A stretch of DNA of 64,000 bases from an uncultured Parapedobacter sp. (lineage in GTDB: Bacteria; Bacteroidota; Bacteroidia; Sphingobacteriales; Sphingobacteriaceae). Every line of letters starts with the position of its first letter. Position 1 is the stretch's first letter. Position numbers and translations under genes: made by a program. The stretch covers positions 18,787 through 82,786 of the forward strand of contig CAZCHE010000011.1 in the NCBI GenBank assembly GCA_964498395.1, in the 5' to 3' direction. Under the pieces are notes generated by a model that saw only the letters and a list, made by a program, of their open reading frames with translations, was not told the DNA's origin and made no database searches. Below, one piece after another: positions 9,130-29,804 of the stretch.

Positions 9130-9133
9130 GATA

Positions 9134-9595: not shown

Positions 9596-9599
9596 GTAT

Positions 9600-9989: not shown

Positions 9990-10049
9990 AATTTGTTTAG
10001 TTGTAGCTAAACTTTCGATTTTTACAATTTGCTTACTTTATTGCAGTGT

Positions 10050-11009: not shown

Positions 11010-11276
11010 TTCAAATTAATCTACTTATCTATTACTCTTTAACTCTTTCATCAAAGATACAATTTTTAGCATTGTTGGTAGATGTTTATTTTGAAATACG
11101 AATCCATTTTTCTACACAGTAAGGTTAAAAGTTGATAAGTTCTTATTTGCGAAACACTACGATTTCCGTAGTAAATCTCTAACAAAGACTAAAAACCTAG
11201 GCTATACCTACCAGATCCCGGCTTATAACCATTGTCAAATGCGAGACGGATGCGCTATGTTGGGGTAGAAGAGTAG

Positions 11277-12647: not shown

Positions 12648-12690
12648 TGAAATAATTTCATGATGAATAGAATCGCCGAACTAAAAAAAC

Positions 12691-15349: not shown

Positions 15350-15369
15350 CCAATACCTTAAAATCAATT

Positions 15370-18300
15370 ATGAAACACCTTTTATTCACGATGCTTATCA
15401 TAAGCATTATTTCCATATCATATGGCCAACAGCAAATTTCCGGAACTGTGCGGTCGGCTTCTGAAGACGTACCACTGGAAGGCGCCTCCGTCAAGCTGCC
15501 CAATGGCAGGGAAGTGACCACTGATCGTAACGGAAAATTTTTGCTTGCCGCCCCAGCTGGCAGTTTTTCGCTGATAGTCAGCTATGTCGGATACATCACC
15601 GATACGCTGGCGATAAACCTACCGATAACCGCACCGTTAGTCATTAGTCTGGATCCTTCCACAGAATTTATGCGTGAGGTAGTGGTCTCTACGGGTTACC
15701 AGAGCCTTCCGCGTGAGCGCAGCACCGGTTCGTTTTCACATATCGACAACGAGACATTCAACCAACAGGTCACCACAGATGTTATGAGTCGTTTGGAGGC
15801 AGTAGCGGGGGCGTATGTGGTGGACCGTAGGGGGGAACGGGCAGCCCGTCCGTTGATTCGTGGATTGGGAACATTGAATGGTCCAACTGAACCATTGGTC
15901 ATTCTGGATAACTTTCCCTATGACGGTGATATCAATAATATCAATCCCAATGACGTGGAAGATATCAGTATCCTCAAAGATGCTGCGGCCGCTTCAATAT
16001 GGGGTGCTCGTGCCGCAAACGGTGTAATTGTCATCCGTACTAAGCAGGGCAATTATAATCAATCGTTAAAAATCGGGGTGCAAGCAAATACCACCATCGA
16101 AAATAAGGCTAATCTGGGCTATATCCCCCAAATGTCTTCATCTGATTTCATCGATGTTGAAAGATTTCTCTATCAACACGGATTTTATACTGGAAGAATT
16201 AACCAAAATACCCGGCCAGCACTATCTCCTGTGGTTGAATTGCTCATCAAGCGTGAAGACGCAAACCCTGCGGAGATGGCCGCCATTGACGCCCAAATGG
16301 ATGGCTGGCGTGGGCTGGATGTGCGAAACGATTTCAAGCGGTATGTCTATCAACCATCAGTCAATCAGCAATATGCATTGAGCGTTGAAGGCGGTGCTGA
16401 CCGATTGGCATGGACAGCCACGGCAGGTTTTGACCATAACAAGGACAATCTCGATGGAGGCTACCAACGACTCAATCTGCGGTTGCAAAACCGCTACAAA
16501 CCAGTAGATTGGCTGGAGATTTCTACAGGACTTCGGTATACGTTGAGCCAGACCAAGAGGGGTAGGGAAGGGTTTGGTAATGTCACAGTTATCAATAGCC
16601 TATATCCATATGCTCAATTTGCCGATGAATACGGCAATCCATTGCCACTGACAAAAAATTTGAGGCAGGCGTTTATTGATGAAACAAACGGCGCTGGGCA
16701 GCTGCTTGATTGGAGCTATTACCCACTCGATGATTATAAGCACACCGACAACACCACTGCACTCAGTGACCTATTGGCCACGACCCAGCTAAATTTCAGG
16801 ATTACCCATTGGCTGGGTGCCGAGGTCGAATACCAATATGAACGGCAGGATAACAATGGCAGGGTATTACATGGAATTGGGAGTTTCTTTACACGCGACC
16901 TCATTAACCGTTACTCGCAAATAGACGGTTCGGGCGACGTTCAACGGCATATCCCTGTGGGGGAGATTCTGGACTTGTCAAACAACCAACTGAATTCCCA
17001 CCAAGCTAGGGGCAAACTAAATGTAAACCACGGTTGGGGAAACCACCAAATCACGGCCATAGGGGGCAGCGAAATCCGCCATGCAGGTACCCAGAGCAAT
17101 CGGCATCGCACATATGGGTACAACGATGATATTCTCACGTTTGGCGCGGTCGACTATCTGAACCCTTATCCCCTTTATCATAGCGGATCACCGACATTCA
17201 TTCCGAGGGCGGATGGGTTTGGCAGGCAGACCACCCGCTTTATCTCCATGTTTGCCAATGGAGCCTATGAGTATGATAGCCGATATACGTTATCCATCAG
17301 TGGCAGGCGTGATGCCTCCAACCTGTTCGGGCTGGCAACTAATGACCAGTGGAATCTGTTCTGGTCACTGGGTGGAGCATGGAATGTTTCGAATGAATCT
17401 TTCTATAATGTGTCTTGGCTGCAGAATTTAAGGCTGCGCGCCACGTATGGTAAATCGGGAAATATCGATCCCTCAATGGTGGCAACAACGACCATGGCTT
17501 ATGTAACGATGGATCCATATACCTTAACGCCGTGGGCAAGGTTTGCCAACTATTATAATCCTGACCTAACATGGGAAACCTCCGCCATGACCAATATTGG
17601 GATAGACTTCGGCCTATTTGGTAGAAGGATTAATGGGTCTATTGAATATTACCATAAGAGCGGTACAGACTTATTCGGGAGGGCAGTTGTGGATTACACG
17701 GGAGGTGTGGGGAGAACGATTACCAAAAATGCCAGCAGTATGGTCGGCAACGGGATTGATCTTGAGCTCAATAGCGTCAACATTGATGCAGCAGTGAAGT
17801 GGCAGAGCAATATAAGGTTTAGCCATTATCAAGACAAAGTGACGAGTAACATCCCTGCCACGACAACCGTGAGCTCAATCGTGGCGGCCGATGGCGGTAC
17901 AACTGGAGTACTCGCTGTAGAAGGCAAACCCGTAAATGCGCTTTTTTCATACCGGTGGGCAGGCCTTGACAGCGAAACAGGAGATCCATTGGGTTATCTA
18001 AACGGAGAACTAAGCAACGATTATAACGCATTACGTGGAAACACCCAAACCATTAACGATATAGTTTACCACGGTTCGACCATTCCCACTTGGTTTGGCT
18101 CACTGGGTAATTCAGTTTCCTATAAACAGTTTTCACTCGCCTTCAGCCTAGTTTATAAATTCGGCCACTATTATAGGCGGCCATCTGTAAGATATTGGGA
18201 TTTGTTCAATAACTGGAATTTTGCACACAGTGATTTTTCTAGGCGATGGCAACAGCCCGGTGATGAACTCACCACCAATGTACCTTCAATGGGGTATCCG

Positions 18301-18570
18301 GCCAATAGCTCACGTGACCTTTTCTATACAGGTTCGGAAGTGCTCGTAGAACGTGGTGATCACATCCGTCTACAGTTTTTACAAGTATCTTATAGCTTGC
18401 CTTTCTTTAGAAAGACACGCATTAGCAGCGCTCAAATTTTTTTCAACGCAAACAATGTAGGAGTGCTGTGGCAAGCAAATAAATCGGGATTAGATCCTGA
18501 TTTTGTTGGCTTAAACACATTGGTCGTACCCACATCGTATTCCTTTGGAATACGTTTTAGCATGAATTAA
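15370..18570 (+). CDS. susC: SusC/RagA-family TonB-linked outer membrane protein
   Basis: Signal peptide, carboxypeptidase-regulatory-like domain (ISGTVRSASEDVPLEGASVKL), plug (VVVSTGYQSLPRERSTGSF; NGPTEPLVILDNFPYDGDINNINPNDVEDISILKDAAAASIWGARAANGVIVIRTK), 1066 aa, C-terminal aromatic-rich end. Confidence 0.92.
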   Translation: MKHLLFTMLIISIISISYGQQQISGTVRSASEDVPLEGASVKLPNGREVTTDRNGKFLLAAPAGSFSLIVSYVGYITDTLAINLPITAPLVISLDPSTEFMREVVVSTGYQSLPRERSTGSFSHIDNETFNQQVTTDVMSRLEAVAGAYVVDRRGERAARPLIRGLGTLNGPTEPLVILDNFPYDGDINNINPNDVEDISILKDAAAASIWGARAANGVIVIRTKQGNYNQSLKIGVQANTTIENKANLGYIPQMSSSDFIDVERFLYQHGFYTGRINQNTRPALSPVVELLIKREDANPAEMAAIDAQMDGWRGLDVRNDFKRYVYQPSVNQQYALSVEGGADRLAWTATAGFDHNKDNLDGGYQRLNLRLQNRYKPVDWLEISTGLRYTLSQTKRGREGFGNVTVINSLYPYAQFADEYGNPLPLTKNLRQAFIDETNGAGQLLDWSYYPLDDYKHTDNTTALSDLLATTQLNFRITHWLGAEVEYQYERQDNNGRVLHGIGSFFTRDLINRYSQIDGSGDVQRHIPVGEILDLSNNQLNSHQARGKLNVNHGWGNHQITAIGGSEIRHAGTQSNRHRTYGYNDDILTFGAVDYLNPYPLYHSGSPTFIPRADGFGRQTTRFISMFANGAYEYDSRYTLSISGRRDASNLFGLATNDQWNLFWSLGGAWNVSNESFYNVSWLQNLRLRATYGKSGNIDPSMVATTTMAYVTMDPYTLTPWARFANYYNPDLTWETSAMTNIGIDFGLFGRRINGSIEYYHKSGTDLFGRAVVDYTGGVGRTITKNASSMVGNGIDLELNSVNIDAAVKWQSNIRFSHYQDKVTSNIPATTTVSSIVAADGGTTGVLAVEGKPVNALFSYRWAGLDSETGDPLGYLNGELSNDYNALRGNTQTINDIVYHGSTIPTWFGSLGNSVSYKQFSLAFSLVYKFGHYYRRPSVRYWDLFNNWNFAHSDFSRRWQQPGDELTTNVPSMGYPANSSRDLFYTGSEVLVERGDHIRLQFLQVSYSLPFFRKTRISSAQIFFNANNVGVLWQANKSGLDPDFVGLNTLVVPTSYSFGIRFSMN

Positions 18571-18580
18571 CTAAATCAAA

Positions 18581-19948
18581 ATGAAGCATATCATGTATAT
18601 TAAGAGAATCAAGTTAGTGTTGGTAAGCACTTTTTTATTCGCGGCTTGCAATTCGTTTCTGGAAGAAAAGTCAGATGGAACGCTCGTCATCCCAAGCACG
18701 TTGGCTGATCTGCAAGCGTTGATGGACAACGTTAACCCAAGAAATTCTAGTTTTAGCAGCGCCGGGGAAGCGAGTGGCGACGATTATTACCTAACCCAGG
18801 CAGCTTATCTGTCCTTGGCAGAAGAGCTCAGGCGTATGCATACTTGGCAGCCCGATTTCATTTTTTCATCCACAGGCAACAATGATTGGTTTCTATGTTA
18901 TCAAGCTGTTTACTTTTTTTCATCCGCATTGAAGTCGCTAGAAGATATCCCTAGGGTAGCTAGCAATGCAGCTGAATGGGATAATGTAAAGGGACAAGCC
19001 CTTGCATTACGCGCATTTCGGTATTTGGATGCCGTACTCATTTGGGGACCCGCCTATGATGAAGTGACAGCTGATACAGACCTAGGTATCCCTTTGCGGA
19101 ATACAACAGATTTTAACGCACCTTCCGTGCGGTCAACAATCCGTGAAACCTATACGCAAATTATCGATGACCTGAAACAAAGTATCGCTTTATTACCTGT
19201 TACCAATATTAACGCTGCACGACCAACGAAGGCTATGGCATACGGCCTGTTGGCGAGAACGTACCTTAATATGCGAGATTATGAGGCGGCGGGGCGCTAC
19301 GCAGACTCTTGTTTACAGTTGCATCACACACTAATCAACTACAATACGCTTGAACCTACTGCGGCGTTCCCTTTTCCGAATCCGATGAATGATGAGACAA
19401 TTTTTCACGCGACAGCAACCTCAAATGCTGCAACGATTACCCATGGCCGTGTGTCTGAAACATTTTTTAATCAATATGATGACAATGATTTAAGGAAAGT
19501 AATCTACTTTTCAGAAGATATTGACGGCCTGTACTTTTTCAAGGGAGGTTATACAGGGCGGCAAGCCATGTTTAGTGGTTTGGCTAGTGATGAAATGTTT
19601 TTAATACTTGCGGAATGTTTGGTTAGATTAGGAATGGTAGAAGCAGGAATCAATACGCTAAACACCCTGTTGGAAAGCCGGTGGAAAACGGGAACGTATG
19701 AGGTGATTACTGCGGAGGGTCAGGAACAGGCTTTGGAAATCGTTTTGTTAGAAAGGAGAAAAGAGCTCGTTCGAAGAGGATTGCGCTGGCATGACCTCAA
19801 GCGGCTCAACAAGGAAGGAGCAAACATCGTAATGGAAAGGAATCTAGACAATACCGTGTTTACGTTGCCAGCCGGTGATTTACGGTATGCGCTACCTATA
19901 CCTGAGGATGTGATTGAGCTTTCGGGCATGCCGCAAAACCCGAGATGA
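18581..19948 (+). CDS. susD: RagB/SusD-family nutrient-uptake outer membrane lipoprotein
   Basis: Lipoprotein signal (LFAACNSF), position immediately after SusC, and the RRKELVRRGLRWHDLKR motif typical of SusD-like proteins. Confidence 0.9.
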   Translation: MKHIMYIKRIKLVLVSTFLFAACNSFLEEKSDGTLVIPSTLADLQALMDNVNPRNSSFSSAGEASGDDYYLTQAAYLSLAEELRRMHTWQPDFIFSSTGNNDWFLCYQAVYFFSSALKSLEDIPRVASNAAEWDNVKGQALALRAFRYLDAVLIWGPAYDEVTADTDLGIPLRNTTDFNAPSVRSTIRETYTQIIDDLKQSIALLPVTNINAARPTKAMAYGLLARTYLNMRDYEAAGRYADSCLQLHHTLINYNTLEPTAAFPFPNPMNDETIFHATATSNAATITHGRVSETFFNQYDDNDLRKVIYFSEDIDGLYFFKGGYTGRQAMFSGLASDEMFLILAECLVRLGMVEAGINTLNTLLESRWKTGTYEVITAEGQEQALEIVLLERRKELVRRGLRWHDLKRLNKEGANIVMERNLDNTVFTLPAGDLRYALPIPEDVIELSGMPQNPR

Positions 19949-19959
19949 TCGTTAAAAAA

Positions 19960-19990
19960 GAAGGGTTTATTGAACTTCAATAAACCCTTC
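19960..19990. terminator. Bidirectional hairpin terminator between convergent genes
   Basis: gaagggtttattgaa-c-ttcaataaacccttc is a near-perfect 31-nt palindrome flanked by A6 upstream and TTT downstream. Confidence 0.75.
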
Positions 19991-20012
19991 TTTCAGTTAC
20001 AAACTTGCCTGC

Positions 20013-20318
20013 TTACGGAGTTGCCGCTTTACTTGATGCAATTTCAAATATTTCCTGTTCAGGATGTGCATCGAGAAGCGCCTGCAAATCTTCCTCGGCC
20101 ACGCCTACTATCTGGCATGGTAGATCCTCATCGGGTTCGCATGAATCACTACCTGGTCCTTCTTGCCAGTACATCCTTTCGTTGAACAGGTTTTCATCAT
20201 TTGGCCCTGTATAATGCCACGTAGTCTGAGCGGTAGGTTTAAATGTAAAAGCAAAACCAGCCGTCACTGTGAACAGCCCCAATACGAGGGCCATTGCACT
20301 TAAAAATAATCTGCGCAT
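20013..20318 (-). CDS. Small secreted protein with a conserved Cys pair
   Basis: Signal peptide MRRLFLSAMALVLGLFTVTAGFA followed by ...DSCEPDEDLPCQIV. It resembles a family of small Bacteroidota secreted proteins, from memory only. Confidence 0.45.
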   Translation of the reverse strand: MRRLFLSAMALVLGLFTVTAGFAFTFKPTAQTTWHYTGPNDENLFNERMYWQEGPGSDSCEPDEDLPCQIVGVAEEDLQALLDAHPEQEIFEIASSKAATP

Positions 20319-20451
20319 AACGTTAAATTTAATGCGTTAAAAAAATAGTTGTTTATTAAGCTCGGGCGATTGAACCGGCGCCCGAAAGCCGGCCCGGTGC
20401 TGTTCGGCCTGGCCATGAACATTACCGGAATTTCCAAATGATCGGTTTTTC

Positions 20452-20979
20452 CTATGGTGGCCTCCTTTCTTTAAGCGTGATGAAAAGCATGACAATGGCG
20501 ATCAGCAATAGGAAGCTGTTGATGACTAAAATGCCCGACCATGATAAGCCCTCAAACCAGCCGATACAGGTACAGATGGTAAACCCGAATGCATCGGATA
20601 GCGCTAGCTGGGCATAGCTGGTGTATCCTGCTAATATCGCGGTGGTCAAACCAAGTCCGTAAATCCGGGTTTTCCGATGAAACAACCCGACCAACAAGAG
20701 CAGGCCTGTGAGCAATTGTGCGGAAATGTTCGCCTTGGCGAAGTGTGGTGACCAATCCCCGAAAACGTGTTGGCGTTTGAAGCTCATTTCCGTATCAGCA
20801 TAATTAACCCACGAATGAATTCCTTTCCAAAGAAATAGGGCGGCTAAGGAAAGCAGGGTTGTGTAGAACGCGAACTGGCGCCAACTGATGTAGAAGCCGA
20901 AGCTTATATTTCCCGCTGTAACGGTGACTGCAATTGCCGGTAGTTGACGTTGGTTTGGTATATGCTTTGTTTTCATCAT
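20452..20979 (-). CDS. MauE/DoxX-family redox-associated membrane protein
   Basis: Four to five TM helices plus the CTCIGWFEG motif, equivalent to CGCFG of MauE-like proteins. Confidence 0.6.
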   Translation of the reverse strand: MMKTKHIPNQRQLPAIAVTVTAGNISFGFYISWRQFAFYTTLLSLAALFLWKGIHSWVNYADTEMSFKRQHVFGDWSPHFAKANISAQLLTGLLLLVGLFHRKTRIYGLGLTTAILAGYTSYAQLALSDAFGFTICTCIGWFEGLSWSGILVINSFLLLIAIVMLFITLKERRPP

Positions 20980-21122
20980 AAAAACAAAGGTCGGGAAGAT
21001 GGAGGTCGTGTACCCGCGCCATCTGGCGCAGGTTTGGGAAAACTTAATGAAATGGAAGACAGCCGGACATGCTGCGCTTCGGCAGGTCAGGCGCTAAGTA
21101 GGGCTATATTTTGCGCCCATTT

Positions 21123-21174
21123 ACATTTTTACGTACGAACTTTTGTTTTTGGACAACATTTTTATGTACGAACT
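21123..21174 (+). repeat. 19-bp direct repeat pair
   Basis: acatttttacgtacgaact (21123-21141) and acatttttatgtacgaact (21156-21174), with 1 mismatch and a 33-bp period. Confidence 0.7.
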
Positions 21175-21183
21175 CACGCCCGC

Positions 21184-21275
21184 TTACAGCTTCCGAAGGG
21201 CACGCGTAATTGTGCGCCGCGAAATATTCAGGTAATCCGCTTGCTCCTGCTGGGAGGTGATGACGTGAAGGGGGT
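21184..21275 (-). pseudogene. C-terminal remnant of a Crp/Fnr-family regulator (paralog of 22551..23177)
   Basis: The minus strand reads ...WHPLHVITSQQEQADYLNISRRTITRALRKL*, against RPIRLATSQQEHADYLNISRRTISRAIRQL* at the end of the intact Crp gene. DNA at 21181-21262 aligns by eye at about 80 percent to 22548-22632. Confidence 0.7.
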
Positions 21276-21293
21276 GCCACAAGAATGCCGAAA

Positions 21294-21344
21294 CGTATCT
21301 TTTGTGATACGTTTTTTGATTATTTTCGTATCTTTGCTGATACG
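21294..21344. promoter_or_regulatory. Twin palindromic operator-like sites CGTATC-N6-GATACG
   Basis: Perfect 6-bp inverted arms at 21294-21311 and 21327-21344, 33 bp centre to centre. The second abuts the ATG at 21345. Confidence 0.55.
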
Positions 21345-22541
21345 ATGGAACCATTAATCAATAAATACAGGGCATTACTGCAACAGGTGGAAAAAGGATT
21401 TGTGCGTAGCCTGGCCAAGAAAATCAATTGGGGTGCACGTGCCATTTGCATTGAAGGGGCGCGGGGTACCGGCAAATCGACCTTGATGCTACAGCACATC
21501 AAGGCGAATTTGCCAGTGGACCAGACGCTTTACCTATCGGCAGACGACCTGTATTTCAAGCAGCATACGCTGACGGAAGTCGCCGAACGTTTCCATCAAC
21601 AGGGGGGCAAGCATTTGTTTTTGGATGAGGTGCATAAATATGCCGATTGGCAACGGGAAGTCAAGAACCTCTATGATTTTTACCCGAAGCTGCAAGTGGT
21701 CGTATCCGGATCCTCCATACTGGCTTTGCAGCGGTCAGAAGCAGACCTCAGCCGGCGATTGTTGCGGTATCACCTGCCGGAGCTTTCCCTACGCGAATTC
21801 ATCGCCTTGAAAGATGGCGTAACATTGCCCGTTTATCCGCTCAACGATGTGCTGGAAAGGCACACGCAACTAGTGGATGAACTGAAAGGAGCCTTGCCGT
21901 CACCCCTGAAATCGTTTCAGGAGTACAACAAGTTGGGTGCCTATCCGTTTTTCTTGGAAGGCGAAGATGAATACCTCGTACGCATCAACCAATTGATCAA
22001 TGTCATCATCGATTACGACCTGCCCGAGGCCAAAGCCATCGAACCGGGTACGCAAGCCAAGTTGAAAAAGCTGCTTTATATCCTCTCCACGGCCGTGCCG
22101 TTTACACCTAATATCGCCCGGTTGGCCGAACAAGTAGGCACCTCACGGAGCAGGTTGCTGGAAATGCTGGATTTATTGGAAAAGGCCCAACTGATATATA
22201 ACCTGCGTAGTGCCTCTTTTGGCATAAGCCTGATGAACAAGCCAGAAAAAGTGTTCCTGCATAATACCAGCCTCATCATGGCATTGGCTGAGGGCCAACC
22301 CAATAAGGGCAATGTCAGGGAGACCTTTTTCTATGCGCAGTTGGTCGGTGCGGGTCATCGGATTACCTACCCGAAAGCCGGTGATTTTTATGTTGACAAT
22401 CAGTACACGGTCGAAGTGGGGGGCAAAAGCAAAGGAACGAAACAAATCGCTGCGAGTGATGATGCCTACCTCGCCATTGACGATATCGAATATGGTACCG
22501 TACGGAAAGTTCCCTTATGGTTGTTTGGATTCTTGTATTGA
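21345..22541 (+). CDS. AAA-family ATPase with a DUF4143-type C-terminal domain
   Basis: Walker A GARGTGKST, Walker B LFLDEVHKY, and overall AAA_14 + DUF4143 architecture. ATG at 21345 (MEPLINKYR) is preferred over 21285. Confidence 0.75.
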   Translation: MEPLINKYRALLQQVEKGFVRSLAKKINWGARAICIEGARGTGKSTLMLQHIKANLPVDQTLYLSADDLYFKQHTLTEVAERFHQQGGKHLFLDEVHKYADWQREVKNLYDFYPKLQVVVSGSSILALQRSEADLSRRLLRYHLPELSLREFIALKDGVTLPVYPLNDVLERHTQLVDELKGALPSPLKSFQEYNKLGAYPFFLEGEDEYLVRINQLINVIIDYDLPEAKAIEPGTQAKLKKLLYILSTAVPFTPNIARLAEQVGTSRSRLLEMLDLLEKAQLIYNLRSASFGISLMNKPEKVFLHNTSLIMALAEGQPNKGNVRETFFYAQLVGAGHRITYPKAGDFYVDNQYTVEVGGKSKGTKQIAASDDAYLAIDDIEYGTVRKVPLWLFGFLY

Positions 22542-22550
22542 TGCTGACCG

Positions 22551-23177
22551 CTAAAGCTGCCGAATCGCCCTACTGATCGTGCGCCGGGAAATGTTCAGGT
22601 AATCCGCATGCTCCTGTTGGGAGGTAGCCAGGCGGATGGGGCGCATGTATTGGTCTTTCATGAACGCAAGGTAACGCGCCGCCCCATCGCTGATCTGCAT
22701 CAACCTGCTTTTCTCGCGGTATTGCTTCAGCTTCCGCTGCTCCATCACATCCACCAGCGTATCGGCCTCCCGGCAGCTTTCCTTGTAGGCTTTCAGGGCA
22801 TCGGCGGGGATGCGGATCACCGTACTTTTGCGCAAGGCTACCACTTCATAACGCAGTTGCCTATCCGTATACAGGTTGGCCGAGGTGAGGATGGTGTGCC
22901 CGGGCAATACGAAGCGGTCGATGCGGCGGTTGCCGGCCGCATCCCACCATACCCCCGCCAATAGCCCCCTGCACACGAAATACACATGGTTGCCCCGGTC
23001 GCCCGGCTCGAACAGGTGCGTGCCGCGCTTCACGTGGGGCAGTGCCGTGCACCAGTTATGCAGCCACTCGCGGTGCGAACCGTCAAGGGTGCAGTATTGG
23101 CTCCAGTAGCCGAGCAGTTGTCTTTCCATGTGCGGTTTTGTCCAGTTGATGCCCTGAAATATGCTCATAAAAAGCAA
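22551..23177 (-). CDS. Crp/Fnr-family transcriptional regulator
   Basis: cNMP-binding beta-roll (LFEPGDRGNHVYFVCRGLL) plus a C-terminal HTH (SQQEHADYLNISRRTISRAIRQL). Confidence 0.8.
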   Translation of the reverse strand: MLFMSIFQGINWTKPHMERQLLGYWSQYCTLDGSHREWLHNWCTALPHVKRGTHLFEPGDRGNHVYFVCRGLLAGVWWDAAGNRRIDRFVLPGHTILTSANLYTDRQLRYEVVALRKSTVIRIPADALKAYKESCREADTLVDVMEQRKLKQYREKSRLMQISDGAARYLAFMKDQYMRPIRLATSQQEHADYLNISRRTISRAIRQL

Positions 23178-23617: not shown

Positions 23618-24577
23618 ATGACCATGAATGAATATTCCGCAAATCGCAATCTATTTACCTTCTTCAGCGCTAACCTCCATAAACTGCTTCCGCACATTCC
23701 CTTGGCAGACCATCCCACTTATTTTAAACAAGCGGCCCACTACCAGCGGATGGCCCGCGATAGGCAGCATGACGGATCCATGCTCAAACGCCTTGCAGCC
23801 CAGGGGCTCCCGCCCGGTATGCTGCACGAACCGGGCGTGGTCGCCACCTTCCACCTCGGGGCATTCAAGTTATTGCCGCGATGGCTCATTACCTGCGGGT
23901 TGCCGCTCACGCTCCTGGTATCGGCCGATATCGCCGCCAGGGAATACGATCGTTACCAAGCCATGGCCAAACAGGCCGGCGCAAGTGCGCCGTTGGAAAT
24001 CCTGCGGGCCGACGACCCCGTGGTCATGCGCAAGATGATCCGCGCAGTGCAGCGGGGTAACTGGGTGGTGGCCTTCTTGGATGGTATCGAGGGGATAGGT
24101 CGATCCAGATCGGGCCGCACCAATCTGACCGTGGATTTCCTCGGGCAGCGCCTGCATGTCAAGTCGGGCATGGCCGAACTGGCCCGCTTGGCCAGATGTC
24201 CCATGTACCCACTCGTGCTGCCGTTTGATGAGCGGGCAGGCGAGGTATCCATCGTATCCCACCTGCCGGCAGTGCACTGCGCTACCCATGAGCGGCACGC
24301 GGCCGTACAACAGACCATGCAAGACCTGTATGCATGGCTGGCAGGGTGGGTATACCGGTGCCCCGCGCAATGGGAAAGGTGGTTTTACATCCACCACGAT
24401 CTGGCGCACGATAGCTTGCCGGACCATGGCGCATTGCTGCTGCAATTCCTCCCGCTGATGACGGGCAATCACCGGTTCTTGCTGCACCGCGATACATACG
24501 GCGCGTACCCGGCATCTCCGGGCATCTACCAAAAGTTATGCGACTTTTATGACCGCCGAATGTTAAGAAATGATTAA
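23618..24577 (+). CDS. LPLAT-superfamily (LpxL/HtrB-like) acyltransferase-like protein
   Basis: VVATFHLGAFKLLP resembles the H(X)4(D/E) box region of lauroyl/myristoyl acyltransferases. AFLDGIEG and VDFLGQRLHVKSGMAELARLARCPMYPLV match the family's central and C-terminal blocks. Confidence 0.5.
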   Translation: MTMNEYSANRNLFTFFSANLHKLLPHIPLADHPTYFKQAAHYQRMARDRQHDGSMLKRLAAQGLPPGMLHEPGVVATFHLGAFKLLPRWLITCGLPLTLLVSADIAAREYDRYQAMAKQAGASAPLEILRADDPVVMRKMIRAVQRGNWVVAFLDGIEGIGRSRSGRTNLTVDFLGQRLHVKSGMAELARLARCPMYPLVLPFDERAGEVSIVSHLPAVHCATHERHAAVQQTMQDLYAWLAGWVYRCPAQWERWFYIHHDLAHDSLPDHGALLLQFLPLMTGNHRFLLHRDTYGAYPASPGIYQKLCDFYDRRMLRND

Positions 24578-24645
24578 TTTGCGCTCACTGTATCACATAC
24601 AACTAAACGGGCACACCGCCCACATCTACTGCATACAGCACACCG

Positions 24646-25710
24646 ATGATTGCATTAAAAAGAGACAAAAAGCGCCTCTACGGCTATCATATCTTGTTTT
24701 GGCTTGGGTATGCCGTTTATTTTTACGGCGTCAATAAGCTGGGTGACCTGACGTATCCTTGGCAAAAGGTGCTGATTTATGTGCCGGGATTTTCCTTGGT
24801 TTTTTACAGTGTATATGGCATACTGTGGGCTAATTTTTCCGAGCGTTTTACTTGGCGTGGATTGCGCTACCTGGCTGGTTTCTACGTCGGCTTTTCGTTG
24901 CTTGCCTTCGGGGTGGCGTTTGTGTTTTTGGAGGGTACCGCTTTTGACTTGATGGCAGGGGCCTCGCCTTCTTTTTTAGGGTTTATGCAAACGTTAGCAG
25001 TCTTGCTCAGTAACTTCAGCGTCTTCGCGCTAGCCTATTTCTGGATGCGCAGGAGCATCGCCAATGCGCGGGCGAAGCAACTGGCAGCGGAGGAGAAAGC
25101 GGCAGCCATGGAGCGGTTGCTGGATGCCGAGCGGCAGAAGCAACGGTTCGAGTACCTTTCGCTATCGGCGCAGGTGTCGCCCCATTTCTTGGCTAACTTG
25201 GTCAATACCTGGATGGGCCAACTCGGCAATACGCATGGCGAACTGGCCCAATCCATGGATCGCATGCATACTTTGGTGGTGTATCACATGGAGGCCAAGG
25301 AACAGGCCAAGGCGGTGGTACCATTGCCACGCGAACTGGAGGCCTTGCGATCGTACGTGCAATTGAGCCAACGGCCAGACCGACCGGTTTATGCCACCTT
25401 GGATGTGCCCCATCAGGTAGCGGGATACACCATCCCGCCTACGGTCCTCATCACCCTGCTCGAAAACGGGCTGAAGCATGGGGTATCCGACGATCCCGCG
25501 CACCCGATCCGGATGCGACTGGTGATGGATGGGCACGTCATGCGATTTTCCTGCCGCAACCGCACCAAGGAGCGGGCTGCCTGGCAATCACATGGCGTGG
25601 GACTGGTTAACCTGCGGCGGAGGCTGGCCATCAAGTATGGCGACCGGGCTACCTTAGCGACGGATACACGGGGGAAGGAGTTCGTGGCCGAATTAACCAT
25701 TGTTTATTAA
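24646..25710 (+). CDS. LytS/YehU-type sensor histidine kinase
   Basis: N-terminal TM helices, a His_kinase block (LSAQVSPHFLANLVNTW), and an HATPase region (LLENGLKHG...GVGLVNLRRRL). Confidence 0.8.
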   Translation: MIALKRDKKRLYGYHILFWLGYAVYFYGVNKLGDLTYPWQKVLIYVPGFSLVFYSVYGILWANFSERFTWRGLRYLAGFYVGFSLLAFGVAFVFLEGTAFDLMAGASPSFLGFMQTLAVLLSNFSVFALAYFWMRRSIANARAKQLAAEEKAAAMERLLDAERQKQRFEYLSLSAQVSPHFLANLVNTWMGQLGNTHGELAQSMDRMHTLVVYHMEAKEQAKAVVPLPRELEALRSYVQLSQRPDRPVYATLDVPHQVAGYTIPPTVLITLLENGLKHGVSDDPAHPIRMRLVMDGHVMRFSCRNRTKERAAWQSHGVGLVNLRRRLAIKYGDRATLATDTRGKEFVAELTIVY

Positions 25711-25745
25711 CCGGATTACCATTCACGATAAAAACAACTTGTACC

Positions 25746-26564
25746 ATGAAAAGAAAATTGACATTAATTGTAGTGGATGACGAGCAGGCGGCCCTGGAGC
25801 GGATGCTGGCGATGCTCTCAAAATTTGTAGACTTGGTGGTCAAAGCCACCTTTACCAACCCGAAAGCGGCCTTGGCCTATTTATCAAAAAACCACGTAGA
25901 CTTCGTGCTGGTGGATATGGAAATGCCCGTGGTGGATGGCATGGCCTTCATCCTGCAGCTACCCAAAGCCATCAAGGTGATCATTAGCACGGGCCATAAG
26001 GCGTATGCCACGGATGGGTTTGACCTCGGTGTGGTAGATTACCTATTGAAACCGGTCAGTATAGATCGACTGGCAAAGGCCATAGACCGGATGAAGAAAA
26101 GGCTGAAGGAACCGATGGGTAAGAGCACCGAACCCAATGACAATTATTACTATTTCATGCTCAAAAGGCATGCAAAAAGCGTACGTACCAAAATCAATTT
26201 CGACGAGCTGGTATACATTTCAACCCACGAGGGTGGTTCGCGGTTTTTCCTGGCCGAAGGGCTTGCTGAAGAGGTGGAGCGCAGGGCGGCGTTGCAAAGA
26301 TCGGGAAAGCGCGATGACGGTGTGGGTGCATATACCGGTGTCAGCGCAAAGGAAAAGTTCTACGAACTGAAGGAGATTTTGGAAGGAACGGCTTTCATGC
26401 AGATCCATCAGAGTTTTATCCTCAACACCATTTTTTTTCGTGAATACGGGAATAGAATCGTCACACTCAATGGGTTTGATGGGATCACGCTGCCTACCGG
26501 CACACGTGCGGCATACCCTGATTTTTTTAACTTTATCGATCACCATCACCTGCCTAACAGCTAA
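25746..26564 (+). CDS. LytR/AlgR-family response regulator (REC + LytTR DNA-binding domain)
   Basis: REC motifs (LIVVDDE, DFVLVDMEMP, KVIISTGH, DYLLKP) and a LytTR end (FMQIHQSFILN), with an about 35-aa insertion in the LytTR domain. Confidence 0.8.
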   Translation: MKRKLTLIVVDDEQAALERMLAMLSKFVDLVVKATFTNPKAALAYLSKNHVDFVLVDMEMPVVDGMAFILQLPKAIKVIISTGHKAYATDGFDLGVVDYLLKPVSIDRLAKAIDRMKKRLKEPMGKSTEPNDNYYYFMLKRHAKSVRTKINFDELVYISTHEGGSRFFLAEGLAEEVERRAALQRSGKRDDGVGAYTGVSAKEKFYELKEILEGTAFMQIHQSFILNTIFFREYGNRIVTLNGFDGITLPTGTRAAYPDFFNFIDHHHLPNS

Positions 26565-26585
26565 GCCAAATATCCCGCTGATGAG

Positions 26586-26686
26586 ACCTGCATGAGCTGC
26601 CGCTCAAAAAAGAAGGCGCGTCCATCAGCGCATGCCAGCCTGCGGTAGGCAGGCAAGCTTCATTGCCTTACAATAACAAATTATGC
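26586..26686 (-). repeat. GC-rich palindromic REP/MITE-like element (inverted copy of 4005-4089)
   Basis: The reverse complement contains gaagcttgcctgcctaccgcaggcTggcatg ... agctcatgcaggt. This matches 4030-4089, with weaker homology extending about 25 bp further. Confidence 0.6.
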
Positions 26687-27006
26687 TTATGAAAAACCAT
26701 CACTTAAGGTATGGTCGGCCGCCGCATTGTGGGTGTTGTCGGCTCATCCAGATCCTCTATCCAGAGCTGAAACACCTGCGAAAAGACCATCACGAGATCA
26801 TGCGCTTCATCCTTGATAAGCAAAAAGAAGAAACGACCTACCGCGATGCGAAATACACAGAGGATCGCGTGGGCATCAGCGAAAGTACCCTGCTGCGCTG
26901 CCAGCACAAAGGGCTTATCCGCGTAGCCAAAACCGAGCGCGGCAAGAAACTCTTCCGCGACCAGGATGTGGAGCGCCTACGGAAGGCGTATTGGGGGAAA
27001 GATTGA
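26683..27006 (+). CDS. MerR-superfamily / excisionase-like HTH protein
   Basis: YTEDRVGISESTLLRCQHKGLIRVAKTERGKKLFRDQDVERL fits the excisionase-type HTH common in Bacteroidota mobile elements. The start overlaps the repeat element, so the start is uncertain. Confidence 0.55.
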   Translation: MLMKNHHLRYGRPPHCGCCRLIQILYPELKHLRKDHHEIMRFILDKQKEETTYRDAKYTEDRVGISESTLLRCQHKGLIRVAKTERGKKLFRDQDVERLRKAYWGKD

Positions 27007-27442
27007 TCGGGCCATCGTGTTCCCACAAACGCTTGGTTTTCTTCGGCCTTTTTCCTGCTTTTTTCCTGCCGTAATGCGCTGCTGATCCGTGTCGGATGCG
27101 CTGCGGATGCGCGGGTAGCACGCATTTGCCACGGATGGTGCCCGCATCGGAACCGCATCATGAGGGGAAATGGGGTGGGGATGGTAGGGAGCTAATCGGG
27201 TGAATGACCGAAACCGGTTTCAGCCCGATGGCGTCTTTGCCATCTAAAAGCACAGGCTATCCCTTCACCTTCCCGTCAACCTACCGATGACCCCCCGTCA
27301 TGTTCCCGTCAACCGTTTTAGATGTATATATTTTTGATTTTCAGCTCACTATGTTTGCTTCCATGAAACAACGCATACCGGTATTGCTAGGTTGTGGATG
27401 GAGTTTAAATAAGTGAAAAATTAAAAATCAAAAAGTAAGGAA

Positions 27443-28084
27443 ATGGGAGTAATTAGAAGAGGAGCCAATGGAGGCTTCAAAGGAAAAGCGGGTAGCGTGA
27501 TCGGCAGCAGCTGGAAGAGCATCGACTACATCAAGGGGCTGTACAAAAAACGCACGAAACCCGCTTCGGAAGAGCAGCTCATGCAGCAGGCAAAATTTGC
27601 GTTGCTGATGCGCTTCCTGTTGCCGCTCAAGCCGTTCATCCGCATCGGATTCGGCCAGCGGCGCGTGGAAACGCTCACGGCCATGAACGTGGCCTTCCAG
27701 GATAACATGAAACGCGCCATCACGGGTGATTACCCGGATTATGCGCTGGATTATGGCCAGGTCCGCATCGGCGAGGGCTACAGTGCGGGTGGTAGCGAAT
27801 CGGCCAGCGTGGATGCGGGTGTACTCACCGTCACGTGGGATACCACACTGAACGTCATGTATAGCCAGCAACCCGATGACCGGGTGTATATCGTGCTGTA
27901 CCACCCCGGTATTGACCAGTTCCTGTCGGCACCGACACCGCCACTGCGGGAGGATGGAGAGGTAAGCATCGCGCTGCCCAACCATTTCCTCGGCGGCGAC
28001 GGCCATGTATGGCTGTTTACCGCCGGCCGGAAAGGAAAAAATGTGTCGCGTAGCGTATACCTAGGGGAGGTAGCGCTGGCATAA
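27443..28084 (+). CDS. DUF6266-family protein
   Basis: The N-terminus MGVIRRGANGGFKGKAGSVIGSSWKSIDYIKG matches my recollection of the DUF6266 signature (G..G.fsGKvG..vg..wrG). Confidence 0.55.
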   Translation: MGVIRRGANGGFKGKAGSVIGSSWKSIDYIKGLYKKRTKPASEEQLMQQAKFALLMRFLLPLKPFIRIGFGQRRVETLTAMNVAFQDNMKRAITGDYPDYALDYGQVRIGEGYSAGGSESASVDAGVLTVTWDTTLNVMYSQQPDDRVYIVLYHPGIDQFLSAPTPPLREDGEVSIALPNHFLGGDGHVWLFTAGRKGKNVSRSVYLGEVALA

Positions 28085-28097
28085 TCAGTTGAATCCG

Positions 28098-28134
28098 AAG
28101 CCGCTCACCCGCCGCGGAGGGTAGGCGGCTTTTG
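28098..28134 (+). terminator. Intrinsic terminator after the first DUF6266 gene
   Basis: aagccgc (28098-28104) pairs with gcggctt (28125-28131), followed by tttt. Confidence 0.5.
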
Positions 28135-28163
28135 GAAATTGTTGAACATAAAATCAGAATGAC

Positions 28164-28715
28164 ATGCAACTTTTAGCGAATACAGTCGATCGAAAAAAAA
28201 ACAGCGAAGTGGACGGGCGACTGCCCATCCGCCAACGTTTCCAGTTGGCCAGTGCATTCCTGAAGCCGCTGGCCAAGTTAATCGTCAGGGGCTTTGCCAC
28301 GCAGCGCAAGCGAAAGACCGCACATGGGCGGGCCATGTCGCACCTGTTGCTGCGGGCGATCCAGGGTGAGTACCCAAACCAATATGTGAACCCCGCACTG
28401 GCGATGCTGAGCGAAGGCGTATTGCAAAACCCCGCCCATGCCGAAGTGACGCGCCAGGGGAGTATGATAACGGTGGAAGCGCAAAGCGCAGACAACGCGG
28501 TTAATCAAGCGTGGGACGATCGCCTCGTACTATGCGCCTATCATCCAGCGCTGCGCGTGGCCGGTATCAACGAACAGGAGTGGCTGCGTGAAGCCGGAAG
28601 CGTGGCACTGCAACTGCCACCGCTGCTGGAAAACCAGCCGGTACACTTGTACCTGATGGTACATGACCGTGATGGCAAACGATGGTCCAATAGTCGGTAC
28701 CTGGGGGAGTTTTAA
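28164..28715 (+). CDS. DUF6266-like paralog lacking the N-terminal Gly-rich segment
   Basis: RQRFQLASAFLKPLAKLIVRGF aligns to QQAKFALLMRFLLPLKPFIRIGF of the upstream gene. The C-terminal ends are also similar (VHLYLMVHDRDGKRWSNSRYLGE versus HVWLFTAGRKGKNVSRSVYLGE). Confidence 0.5.
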   Translation: MQLLANTVDRKKNSEVDGRLPIRQRFQLASAFLKPLAKLIVRGFATQRKRKTAHGRAMSHLLLRAIQGEYPNQYVNPALAMLSEGVLQNPAHAEVTRQGSMITVEAQSADNAVNQAWDDRLVLCAYHPALRVAGINEQEWLREAGSVALQLPPLLENQPVHLYLMVHDRDGKRWSNSRYLGEF

Positions 28716-28721
28716 GCCGGT

Positions 28722-28817
28722 GCAACATTGCTGATGGGCAATCATGCAAATCCGCAGATAAGCAAATAAGCAAATAAGCGAATCTGCAGATAAGCAAATC
28801 CGCGAATAAGCAAAAAA
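28722..28817 (+). repeat. Tandem array of 12 degenerate octamers (GCRAATNN)
   Basis: gcaacatt gctgatgg gcaatcat gcaaatcc gcagataa gcaaataa gcaaataa gcgaatct gcagataa gcaaatcc gcgaataa gcaaaaaa, followed by an A-rich leader and the ATG at 28830. Confidence 0.85.
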
Positions 28818-28829
28818 ACAAAAAAACAA

Positions 28830-29282
28830 ATGACAGCAAAAATCATCCGCGTGGCACAGGGGAAGAACAGTACCCTCAGCCACCTGTACATCGGCGGCCT
28901 GTTCCGCTGCTACCTACTGGAAGACAGCATACGGGAGGAGAAAATCCCGGGGCTGACCTGCATCCCCGAGGGGGAGTACGAGCTGTCGCTCAACCACTGG
29001 GCGGGCATGAATACGCAGTACGGACGTAACCACCCCAAGCTGCACCAGGGTATGGTGGAGATCACCGAGATACCCAACTTCAGCCTGGTGTTCTTCCACA
29101 TCGGCAACTACCACACGCAGACCGCGGGCTGCCCGCTCACGGGATCGTACTGGCAACTGCTGGACGGCGACTACCAGGTGCTGCATTCGGCCGCGGCCTA
29201 CAAACACGTGTACCCATTGCTGGTGGAGCAGATCGAGCAGGGCAATGACCGCTTGGTGGTGGTTAATGAACTGAATCGCTGA
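28830..29282 (+). CDS. DUF5675-family protein (YkuD/L,D-transpeptidase-like Cys-His motif; possible cell-wall hydrolase)
   Basis: FFHIGNYHTQTAGCPLTG resembles the IH.GN...DT.GCIL.G block of DUF5675 and the H...GC catalytic block of YkuD-fold enzymes. Confidence 0.55.
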   Translation: MTAKIIRVAQGKNSTLSHLYIGGLFRCYLLEDSIREEKIPGLTCIPEGEYELSLNHWAGMNTQYGRNHPKLHQGMVEITEIPNFSLVFFHIGNYHTQTAGCPLTGSYWQLLDGDYQVLHSAAAYKHVYPLLVEQIEQGNDRLVVVNELNR

Positions 29283-29413
29283 TGCGCTGATATGCAGATG
29301 CGCGAATCCGCGAATAGGCAAATAAGCAAATCCGCAAGTGGGCAAATCCGCAAGTGGGCAAATCCGCAAGTGGGCAAATCCGCGAATAAGCAAATCTGCA
29401 AATCCGCAAAAAA
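29278..29413 (+). repeat. Tandem array of 17 octamers, including a 16-bp unit (GCAAATCCGCAAGTGG) x3
   Basis: gctgatgc gctgatat gcagatgc gcgaatcc gcgaatag gcaaataa (gcaaatcc gcaagtgg)x3 gcaaatcc gcgaataa gcaaatct gcaaatcc gcaaaaaa, followed by an A-rich leader and the ATG at 29423. Confidence 0.9.
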
Positions 29414-29422
29414 GAAAAAAAC

Positions 29423-29641
29423 ATGAAAGAAAAAGAAACCGTCGGCAACCCCACAGTGGGGAAACCGACTCTATACGAACGGATCAAGGAAACACTGGCC
29501 GTGGCCAGCCAACTCATCATTGCCTCACCGCTGAAACTGCCGCCCAAGGTGGTGGCAGCGGCCAAGTACCTCGCCCTGGCGCTGGGGGTACTGGAAGCGG
29601 TGGAAGGCGCGGCGGGGAAAGGGGAAGACGATGAAGGCTAA
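29423..29641 (+). CDS. Small hydrophobic/amphipathic protein (72 aa)
   Basis: The ORF directly follows the octamer array and A-rich leader. LAVASQLIIASPLKLPPKVVAAAKYLALALGVLEAV is a hydrophobic core with an acidic tail. Confidence 0.4.
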   Translation: MKEKETVGNPTVGKPTLYERIKETLAVASQLIIASPLKLPPKVVAAAKYLALALGVLEAVEGAAGKGEDDEG

Positions 29642-29804
29642 CCAGCAACTCGGCATCGGCACGGGCGGCGGCACGCTGCTGGGCATCGTCACACAGTTGG
29701 GCATGCACGACGTGCTGAAAACGGTGGTACTTGCCGCCATCGGGGCGGTGGTCAGCTTCGGTATAACGCTACTGCTGCAACGCGTGGCACGCAGAAAACG
29801 GTAG
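29631..29804 (+). CDS. Unlisted 57-aa two-TM protein with a basic C-terminus (holin-like)
   Basis: Hand translation gives MKANQQLGIGTGGGTLLGIVTQLGMHDVLKTVVLAAIGAVVSFGITLLLQRVARRKR*. It overlaps the previous stop by 11 nt and falls below the 60-aa ORF-track cutoff. A hairpin follows at about 29812-29848. Confidence 0.4.
   Translation: MKANQQLGIGTGGGTLLGIVTQLGMHDVLKTVVLAAIGAVVSFGITLLLQRVARRKR

Follow-up and report, generated by a model that had tools for sequence, protein, structure and literature searches.

A conserved chromosomal module of Sphingobacteriaceae that may release DUF6266 proteins through an interchangeable, phage-derived lysis cassette

Comparative sequence analysis was used to characterize a small gene cluster in a stretch of 64,000 nucleotides (nt) from an uncultured Parapedobacter sp. 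(contig CAZCHE010000011.1, positions 18,787 to 82,786), which is referred to as the window. The stretch is part of a soil Bacteroidota chromosome of Parapedobacter-like character: the nearest relatives of its proteins are found in Parapedobacter with 82-86% identity, and the DNA sequencing runs that contain it are metagenomes. The cluster encodes a small helix-turn-helix (HTH) protein, two proteins of the DUF6266 family, a DUF5675 protein and two small proteins, termed s72 and s57. An earlier interpretation of these letters without database searches (the sequence-only reading) had named six open reading frames (ORFs), all of which are present, and the remaining content that it listed (two DUF6266 genes, DUF5675, two small ORFs, a 436-bp spacer and a 12-mer repeat) was confirmed. 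The six genes are as follows.

26683-27006, + strand: small HTH protein, 107 amino acids (aa), MerR/HTH_17-like; weak MerR_1 match (E 1.4e-4, 22.3 bits, cut-off 21.6)
27443-28084, + strand: DUF6266 protein a (DUF6266a), 213 aa, proposed cargo; Pfam PF19781 (E 3.9e-33, 115.1 bits, cut-off 23.4)
28164-28715, + strand: DUF6266 protein b (DUF6266b), 183 aa, paralogue without the N-terminal arm (E 2.1e-18, 67.0 bits)
28830-29282, + strand: DUF5675 protein, 150 aa, without signal peptide, proposed cytoplasmic endolysin; Pfam PF18925 (E 1e-27, 96.7 bits, cut-off 26.7)
29423-29641, + strand: s72, 72 aa, proposed accessory lysis protein (antiholin or outer-membrane factor), with a moderately hydrophobic centre and an acidic tail
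29631-29804, + strand: s57, 57 aa, proposed holin, with a strong transmembrane (TM) segment at about residues 27-53 and an RRKR tail (hydropathy)

To place these genes in context, related genome loci were fetched (n = 80) together with loci reached through individual homologues, and their ORFs were mapped by profiles and all-against-all clustering. Upstream counts refer to the 75 loci with at least 4.5 kb of upstream sequence and downstream counts to the 83 genome loci with at least 1.5 kb of downstream sequence; single loci are given as L numbers where they have to be told apart. A recurrent gene order was found in the Sphingobacteriaceae, running from an acyltransferase-like gene through a PF06580 histidine kinase, a LytTR-type response regulator and the small HTH gene to DUF6266, a second DUF6266 gene and a lysis block. 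In the window this conserved module occupies 23618-29804. The sequence-only reading had described a compact island beginning at the HTH gene, but the unit also takes in the acyltransferase-like gene and the kinase/LytTR pair (23618-26564), and the genes at 26683-29804 are the 3' (output) part of a conserved chromosomal module of the Sphingobacteriaceae. The order DUF6266-DUF6266-DUF5675-s72-s57 is kept in Olivibacter, Sphingobacterium and several Parapedobacter loci with differing flanking genes, which is the opposite of the lack of conserved synteny that the sequence-only reading had named as speaking against its proposal. Several genomes carry at least two complete copies of the module at separate sites, as exemplified by P. 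pyrenivorans (L007 and L014) and P. koreensis (L008 and L009).

The strongest evidence on the function of the output part comes from the genes that occupy the position directly after DUF6266, where a peptidoglycan hydrolase cassette was found in 75 of the 83 genome loci. Variant A, to which the window belongs, consists of DUF5675, s72 and s57 (34 loci). Variant B (41 loci) consists of a 3-TM protein (~128 aa), a CHAP protein (~195 aa) and a lipoprotein with a C-terminal TM segment (~150-165 aa); its CHAP protein has an N-terminal TM segment and matches Pfam CHAP (2e-7 to 2e-9) and PHROG endolysin families (5e-10 to 2e-13). The eight loci with neither cassette include two partial cases, namely L016 with s72 and s57, and L072 with a CHAP gene between two DUF6266 genes. 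Variant C was found at L092, where DUF6266 is distant (33% identity) and is followed by a TM/coiled-coil protein, a GH19-like lysin (phrog_181, 4.8e-26; Glyco_hydro_19, E 1.5e-4) and a lipoprotein with a coiled coil and a C-terminal TM segment. Variant D was detected in 16 of 49 metagenome loci, a sample that was picked by a different DUF6266 N-terminal pattern, and combines DUF6266 with a Phage_holin_4_1 holin (25.1 bits, cut-off 22.2), a 136-aa phrog_873 lysin (2.5e-39) carrying an RNNNPLNIR motif, and a lipoprotein of 126-130 aa with a C-terminal TM segment. Variant D occurs in digester, rumen and gut metagenomes, with the cassette ~0-2 kb after DUF6266 and the holin or a TM/coiled-coil protein first (D-type loci are L097, L098, L104, L106, L108, L131, L135, L136, L139, L145-L147, L159, L160, L162, L164 and L172). 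Proteins with a lipobox and a C-terminal TM segment are thus found in variants B, C and D; a lipoprotein with a C-terminal TM segment is the architecture that defines unimolecular spanins (PMC6139136). As four unrelated peptidoglycan hydrolases share one slot, each with its own membrane partners, we argue from gene content that DUF5675 would act as an endolysin here and that lysis or wall breaching would be the selected function. The conserved synteny and the exchange of the DUF5675 block for other lysin cassettes in sister loci support the sequence-only reading in its view of a lysis-cassette-like, probably domesticated lysis or release module.

The DUF5675 protein is a member of phrog_1501 (E 1e-20), and homologues were identified in 161 phage records (Vibrio, crAss-like and Cellulophaga phages). 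Some of these are annotated as L,D-carboxypeptidase/transpeptidase or peptidoglycan hydrolase, and in the Thiohalocapsa phage LS06-2018-MD03 it is located two genes away from a gene with the annotation Rz-like spanin. In addition, structural comparison (US-align) in a 2026 preprint places a DUF5675 lysin candidate among the C82 peptidases. The statement that all components of the cluster are DUFs of no defined function was therefore too broad. Residues 88-102 of the window protein (FFHIGNYHTQTAGCP) contain the His ... (S/T)-x-G-C motif of the YkuD/L,D-transpeptidase superfamily as defined in PMC9638812. H90, G100 and C101 are invariant throughout the family including its phage members, as are R7, T15, E31, P46, G48 and S120, and T98 is conserved in the close Parapedobacter-type homologues. 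These features make DUF5675 a likely Cys/His peptidoglycan peptidase, possibly an L,D-carboxypeptidase or endopeptidase with Cys101/His90 as its active site, while membership of the YkuD fold is unproven. As the protein has no signal peptide, a membrane lesion would be needed for it to reach the wall.

Such a lesion might be provided by the small proteins. Homologues of s72 were detected in 32 loci and of s57 in 30 loci, with ratios of nonsynonymous to synonymous substitution rates (dN/dS) of 0.11-0.35 and 0.12-0.32, respectively; conservation in about 30 loci and purifying selection identify both as real genes. Their ORFs overlap by 11 nt, and the same overlap is present in L009, L010 and L016. 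The sequence-only reading had described s57 as a two-TM protein with an RRKR tail. The tail is there, but hydropathy gives one strong TM segment and a weakly hydrophobic, Gly-rich N-terminal stretch, so that two TM segments are plausible and not certain. Neither s57 nor s72 matched a holin or spanin family in Pfam or PHROG.

Expression signals were examined in the 436-bp spacer between the HTH gene and DUF6266a (27007-27442) and in the spacers further downstream. The following elements were located.

27262-27311, + strand: four phased direct heptamer repeats, CCKTCA at 27262, 27273, 27295 and 27306 (spacing 11/22/11), containing the 12-mer repeat
27350-27357, + strand: -7 promoter box, TATGTTTG, matching the Bacteroidota TAnnTTTG
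27375-27384, + strand: palindrome ATACCGGTAT, 18 nt downstream of the -7 box, candidate operator or element of the 5' untranslated region
28094-28136, + strand: GC-rich hairpin and U run, candidate terminator or attenuator after the first gene (fold -27.6 kcal/mol, z -3.0)

TAnnTTTG is the established -7 consensus of Bacteroides promoters. The 12-mer TTCCCGTCAACC occurs exactly twice in the 64 kb (27270-27281 and 27303-27314) against an expectation of 0. It had been noted as a direct repeat of two copies; both copies are there, but they belong to four phased CCKTCA heptamers, which are probably activator binding sites. One layout upstream of DUF6266 is common to 70 of 86 loci, with four direct heptamer repeats, ~35 nt, TAnnTTTG, 16-19 nt, (A)TACCGGTA(T) and an A-rich leader; the four repeats with a locus-specific core were judged by eye and are seen in most of the 70 aligned loci. 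The signature is specific, as TAnnTTTG-N14-22-TACCGG gave 75 matches in 1.1 Mb of loci and 73 of these lie directly upstream of a DUF6266 gene. The core of the repeats varies among paralogous modules (CCGTCAA, CGGTCAA, CGGACAA, CTGCCAA, GCTTCAA and others) while the palindrome is invariant, which suggests two DNA-binding factors, one module-specific and one common. Searches of the 5' region and the long upstream spacers against Rfam gave no match, and a sigma-70 promoter scan is uninformative for Bacteroidota. One paralogous module of P. pyrenivorans differs in the DNA that separates the HTH gene from the DUF6266 promoter, where a unit containing GGCCAAACGTGT is repeated in tandem about ten times (L007:6260-6480); these units are absent from the window.

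A hairpin of at least -14 kcal/mol strength was found directly 3' of the first DUF6266 gene in 82 of 88 loci, compared with 28 of 88 in a coding-sequence control; it is usually accompanied by a U run. No TAnnTTTG box was seen in the downstream spacers of the window. Taken together, the hairpin after the first gene and the lack of such a box suggest that the lysis genes are probably expressed by read-through and below the level of DUF6266a.

The presumed cargo of the module belongs to a very diverse family, with 7,272 DUF6266 clusters at 50% identity, nearly all of ~213 aa and some in the form of tandem fusions. An AlphaFold2 model of DUF6266a (mean confidence score, pLDDT, 87) consists of a low-confidence N-terminal beta-meander, two long helices and a seven-stranded FN3/Ig-like sandwich, for which Foldseek searches of PDB and BFVD returned generic FN3 matches only. 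Residues 1-35 are basic (isoelectric point 10.3), Gly-rich and the most conserved part of the protein (0.78), and the C-terminal Ig-like domain is variable (0.43). DUF6266b had been said to lack the Gly-rich N-terminus, in agreement with the alignment and with a profile match that begins at position 27. Both genes are under purifying selection (dN/dS 0.11-0.14 for DUF6266a and 0.05-0.12 for DUF6266b). Inspection of the sequence revealed no N-terminal hydrophobic segment, no signal-peptide predictor having been run, and a toxic domain was likewise not detected. A tblastn search of 50,697 phage records yielded no DUF6266 match, and the family was found neither in PHROGs nor in IMG/VR, where the patterns used were biased towards Sphingobacteriaceae N-termini. 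A literature search found no paper naming DUF6266 or PF19781. The lack of a signal segment, the absence from the phage collections searched, the diversity of the family and the combination of a conserved arm with a variable Ig-like domain point to a cargo protein and not to a phage part.

Several other arrangements of DUF6266 genes were observed. Tandem arrays of 2-6 paralogues without lysis genes are present in L004:8001-10652, L112, L113, L118, L125-L127, L130, L132, L133, L140, L151, L153 and L158. Where enough downstream sequence was available, such arrays lie immediately upstream of prs-rplY-pth (L004, L113, L118, L127, L130 and L153), and in L004 phased ...CCAA repeats precede the array. 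At L099, L111, L114, L115, L131, L138, L145 and L169 a gene for a Piwi-domain protein (prokaryotic Argonaute, pAgo) of ~694 aa was found upstream of DUF6266; after it come ~1.3 kb of DNA that appears to be non-coding and is conserved in part, in which Rfam found no known RNA, and often a DUF6943 gene.

The upstream part of the module contains three genes in addition to the HTH gene.

23618-24577, + strand: acyltransferase-like gene, LPLAT/lipid A acyltransferase-like, 319 aa, first gene of the upstream block; Pfam Lip_A_acyltrans (E 8.3e-7)
24646-25710, + strand: membrane sensor histidine kinase of LytS/YehU type, 354 aa; Pfam His_kinase PF06580 (E 4.6e-9)
25746-26564, + strand: response regulator with LytTR-type output domain, 272 aa; Response_reg (E 2.6e-19)

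Acyltransferase-like homologues are found at the same position in 31 of the 75 loci, the kinase (36.8 bits, cut-off 25.2) is located upstream of DUF6266 in 36 and the response regulator in 37. The receiver domain of the regulator passes its threshold and the LytTR match of the window protein is weak (E 6.9e-4, 20.2 bits, under the cut-off of 22.6); the orthologues at L002 and L007 have LytTR on record. The best NCBIfam matches of the regulator were BtsR and LytR, in a scan that supplied no protein names. HTH homologues precede DUF6266 in 47 of the 75 loci, with 7 further probable cases, and are present even in Pedobacter loci where no response regulator was detected within 6 kb upstream. The small HTH protein (dN/dS 0.16-0.30) is thus the regulator most consistently linked to DUF6266. 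Its earlier description as excisionase-like reflects a resemblance of the HTH fold only, with a PHROG excisionase match of E 0.019, and a role as excisionase of a mobile element was rejected because no recombinase is nearby and the gene is conserved within the regulator block. Still further upstream, the neighbourhood at 13868-23177 includes genes for SusC/SusD, a TlpA/AhpC-like thioredoxin protein, a Crp-like cNMP-binding regulator and a MauE/DoxX membrane protein. It is shared by many loci from several genera, where it again precedes a DUF6266 module, and this recurrence suggests a larger duplicated block.

Comparison of the window with five Parapedobacter loci gave dN/dS values of 0.05-0.35 for all six genes, at dS near or above 1, and all six are under purifying selection. 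A scan of ORFs at 13.9-31.4 kb, to which this search of the window was confined, revealed no integrase, capsid or terminase family. This agrees with the sequence-only reading that the cluster, without capsid, tail, integrase or terminase genes, is not an ordinary prophage. With regard to the features of a prophage or satellite, the scanned neighbours include no integrase, replication, capsid or packaging gene (att sites were not searched), and there is no tRNA gene in the window. The satellite remnant that had been offered as an alternative is disfavoured by the dN/dS values, the several intact copies per genome, the recurrence of the regulators and the lack of an integrase or replication gene nearby. 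The sole clear mobile context was encountered at L092 (~400-10100), where an AT-rich island (~9.7 kb, GC 0.30-0.34) between host genes contains ParA, several unknown genes, DUF6266, the GH19-like lysis cassette and a tyrosine integrase. This island may be a small integrative element that carries a DUF6266 and lysis unit. Elsewhere in the window, the region 7000-13000 has a low GC content (0.34-0.38 compared with 0.42-0.57 in the rest) and may be horizontally acquired; it is unrelated to the lysis module.

The DUF5675 gene is flanked by two repeat arrays, which were detected with Tandem Repeats Finder.

28746-28831, no strand assigned: tandem array of an 8/16-nt repeat, GCAAATCC / GCAAATAA units, upstream of DUF5675
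29290-29410, no strand assigned: second array of the 8/16-nt repeat, GCAAATCC / GCAAGTGG units, downstream of DUF5675

Orthologous Parapedobacter loci have different repeats in these spacers, resembling repetitive extragenic palindromic (REP) sequences or miniature inverted-repeat transposable elements (MITEs), or none, and the arrays were therefore dismissed as essential parts of the module. In sequencing run X5, low-depth contigs join both arrays (28809 to 29302), representing an assembly artefact or a DUF5675 deletion.

The explanation that we favour, with moderate confidence, is a regulated module that couples the production of DUF6266 in large amounts to a phage-derived lysis cassette. 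It would operate in the manner of a colicin operon or a type 10 secretion system (T10SS) and release DUF6266 as cargo. The case for the lysis cassette is strong as far as gene content and synteny can make it, while we infer that DUF6266 is the cargo, that s57 is the holin and how the regulators act. The logic of the operon lends support to the model through the DUF6266-specific promoter signature and the hairpin after the first gene. In such a system the LytS-type kinase (24646-25710) would sense a signal and activate the LytTR regulator (25746-26564), and this regulator, the small HTH protein or both would act on the heptamers (27262-27311) and the palindrome ATACCGGTAT that flank the TAnnTTTG promoter. 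Transcription would then yield mostly DUF6266a mRNA owing to the terminator-like hairpin (28094-28136), and a read-through fraction would supply DUF6266b, DUF5675, s72 and s57. The s57 holin would open the inner membrane, DUF5675 would reach and cleave the wall, and s72 would modulate the timing or an outer-membrane step; these transcription and lysis steps draw in part on features of the sequence. As a result the cell, or a subpopulation of cells, would lyse or leak and release DUF6266, whose N-terminal arm and Ig-like domain could act outside as an adhesin, a matrix protein or a competitor-binding protein.

A number of observations weigh against this explanation. DUF6266 is not always found beside lysis genes: its neighbours are unrelated in 23 of the 49 metagenome loci, prs-rplY-pth has arrays of 4-6 copies next to it with no lysis gene, and many single copies are located in variable regions. 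The term cargo is an assignment by guilt by association, and DUF6266 could also be a regulator or an intracellular structural protein. The enzymology of DUF5675 is itself inferred. The YkuD-type Cys/His block pointed out by the sequence-only reading is present as a motif, but the corresponding fold was not recovered: a Foldseek search of PDB with the AlphaFold2 model (pLDDT 90) gave nothing at E <= 0.001 and no L,D-transpeptidase among the top 50, a profile search of PDB sequences gave a chance match only, and hhalign against E. coli LdtB, a weak test with a single-sequence template, returned a probability of 0.2%. Profile support is weak as well, with no match to YkuD or Tlde1_dom above threshold: Tlde1_dom alone was matched, at E 0.06-0.08 (~14 bits, cut-off 30.1) in three homologues, and the window protein gave no match. 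The holin role proposed for s57 draws on its size, one TM segment, charged tail and position. The variant in the window has no recognizable spanin, as is also the case for ~15% of phages (10.1101/515445). Covariation between repeat core and protein identity, dominated by phylogeny and with only 4 informative distant pairs, assigned neither the HTH protein nor the LytTR regulator to a site (area under the curve 0.87 versus 0.93). Finally, two metatranscriptome runs contained long contigs only, probably from DNA carry-over, and have no bearing on expression or operon structure.

Other explanations were considered, and each of them fits the data less well than release of the T10SS or colicin type. 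The first is regulated autolysis, a programmed death of a subpopulation similar to LytSR-cid/lrg, in which lysis itself is the purpose (extracellular DNA, nutrients or biofilm). DUF6266 would be made under the same control but have an intracellular or regulatory role, such as that of an RNA- or DNA-binding factor at the hairpin after the first gene. It would account for the shared two-component family (PF06580 and LytTR, as in LytSR), for lysis cassettes being kept in every variant and for the basic arm of DUF6266 (isoelectric point 10.3) with a conserved hairpin directly downstream. However, DUF6266 is the most constant member of the module and the lysin is interchangeable, arrays of 4-6 DUF6266 copies exist without lysis genes, and a hypervariable Ig-like domain is easier to reconcile with an exposed or binding protein than with a regulator. 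PF06580/LytTR pairs are moreover very common in Bacteroidota, which makes the parallel to LytSR a weak one. We regard this explanation as a whole as unlikely.

Improbable, in our estimate, is a non-lytic remodelling of the wall, in which DUF5675 trims or edits peptidoglycan under envelope-stress control, assisted at the membrane by the small proteins and without any release. An H..(S/T)xGC-type motif and the weak Tlde1_dom matches would suit such a task, as Tlde1a is an L,D-carboxypeptidase/exchange enzyme with the residues H121, H129 and C131 (PMC9638812). Without a signal peptide or membrane anchor, however, DUF5675 needs a membrane lesion, and its slot is shared with CHAP, GH19-like and phrog_873 lysins together with holin-family and u-spanin-type proteins, which amounts to a phage lysis set and does not resemble housekeeping genes for wall remodelling.

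Slightly less credible still is the idea that DUF6266 self-assembles into a particle, fibre or coat (virus-like, similar to a gene transfer agent, or a domesticated descendant) that exits via the lysis cassette. The basic, Gly-rich and conserved arm has the low model confidence expected of an inter-subunit or nucleic-acid-binding arm, the first gene appears set for much higher expression than the rest, full-length and arm-less paralogues are paired, and L092 provides an island with integrase and ParA. Against this, the FN3/Ig-like fold of the C-terminal domain is not known from capsids, genes for replication or packaging are not linked to the module in Sphingobacteriaceae, and the particle is a prediction from gene content. 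It is very doubtful that DUF6266 is the coat or fibre subunit of unrecognized minimal particle-forming elements of Bacteroidota, in which the arm would assemble or bind nucleic acid, the Ig-like domain would face outward and exit would occur through the element's own cassette, the elements being mobile on islands of the L092 type and repeatedly domesticated under two-component control in Sphingobacteriaceae. Just as doubtful is an inert prophage or phage-satellite remnant, i.e. the end of a late operon with a structural protein and a lysis cassette and without a host function. It has in its favour the phage-type lysis genes, the presence of DUF5675 in PHROG 1501 and the ~9.7-kb AT-rich island of L092, but purifying selection acts on all six genes, the ORFs are intact in dozens of species, genomes have at least 2 copies, of which many are accompanied by separate regulator genes, and the promoter signature is conserved. 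In addition, the scan around the window locus revealed no integrase, capsid or terminase, and DUF6266 was not in the phage collections searched. Anti-phage abortive infection, in which the lysis cassette kills infected cells, is the least probable of all. In its favour, defence-type genes are often seen near metagenome DUF6266 (Piwi/pAgo in at least 8 loci, AbiE-like pairs by eye). Against it, a PADLOC scan matched only the receiver domain of the response regulator and none of the other eight proteins, including the effector proteins of the module, membrane two-component control does not suggest sensing of intracellular infection, and the role of DUF6266 would be left unexplained.

Release of DUF6266 by lysis has its closest parallels in the T10SSs, such as Serratia marcescens ChiWXYZ, the Tc-toxin lysis cassette of Yersinia entomophaga (PMC10847048) and Salmonella chitinase/TtsA (PMC10109510). 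These likewise have a non-prophage chromosomal cassette of holin, hydrolase and sometimes spanin beside a presumed released protein, dedicated transcriptional control and expression that is probably limited to a subset of cells. By gene content the module corresponds to a T10SS, with a candidate holin and a hydrolase outside a prophage, beside a putative cargo and in conserved chromosomal synteny. The published examples found in the literature search are from Enterobacterales only, apart from holin-dependent toxin release in Clostridioides, and their cargo is a known enzyme or toxin, whereas the system described here belongs to Bacteroidota, has an uncharacterized Ig-like putative cargo, is known from genes alone and, in the window, uses DUF5675 as lysin and a LytTR-type two-component pair plus HTH protein as regulators. 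With colicin and pyocin operons the module shares a first gene for a putative, highly expressed cargo, a terminator-like hairpin before lysis genes that would be reached by read-through, and a release that would be costly to the producer. It differs in that no immunity gene was identified, a putative holin/endolysin set takes the place of the small lysis lipoprotein and no toxic domain was detected in DUF6266.

The cassette itself resembles phage lysis cassettes (lambda S-R-Rz/Rz1; T1-type unimolecular spanin; PMC6139136) in its small membrane protein with charged C-terminus, putative muralytic enzyme, overlapping genes (s72/s57) and interchangeable type of endolysin, and in the C-terminal-TM lipoproteins of sister loci. 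Unlike these cassettes it lies outside a phage genome, has no spanin-like gene in the variant of the window, and its s57 and s72 match no holin or spanin family. At the level of the enzyme, Tlde1a/YkuD (MEROPS C82; PDB 7UMA; PMC9638812) has a comparably short His-Cys spacing, with H121...H129-G-C131 in Tlde1a and H90...T98-A-G-C101 in DUF5675 (a spacing of 10 versus 11), a peptidoglycan substrate that is predicted for DUF5675 as well, and phage homologues annotated as L,D-carboxypeptidase/transpeptidase. DUF5675, however, stays under the family thresholds, shows no Foldseek or hhalign similarity, has no signal peptide and is not an effector of a type VI secretion system. Staphylococcus LytSR-lrgAB/cidABC also places a PF06580 kinase and a LytTR regulator beside holin-like and murein-hydrolase-related genes, but proteins of the LrgA/CidA family are absent here and the likeness is confined to regulator family and theme.

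The module probably serves to release DUF6266, and such a release system has not yet been described in Bacteroidota. If this is true, release of the T10SS type would extend to another phylum and would be found there family-wide, in multiple copies and under separate regulation. The analysis would provide a first functional context for DUF6266, a very large orphan family, and would likewise give context to DUF5675, a lysin domain often encountered among crAss-like and Vibrio phages. It would also supply Bacteroidota, a phylum in which lysis proteins are poorly known, with four natural endolysin cassettes that are interchangeable and come with candidate holins and unimolecular spanins. The compact and specific promoter/operator signature would make regulator-operator specificity among paralogous modules directly testable.

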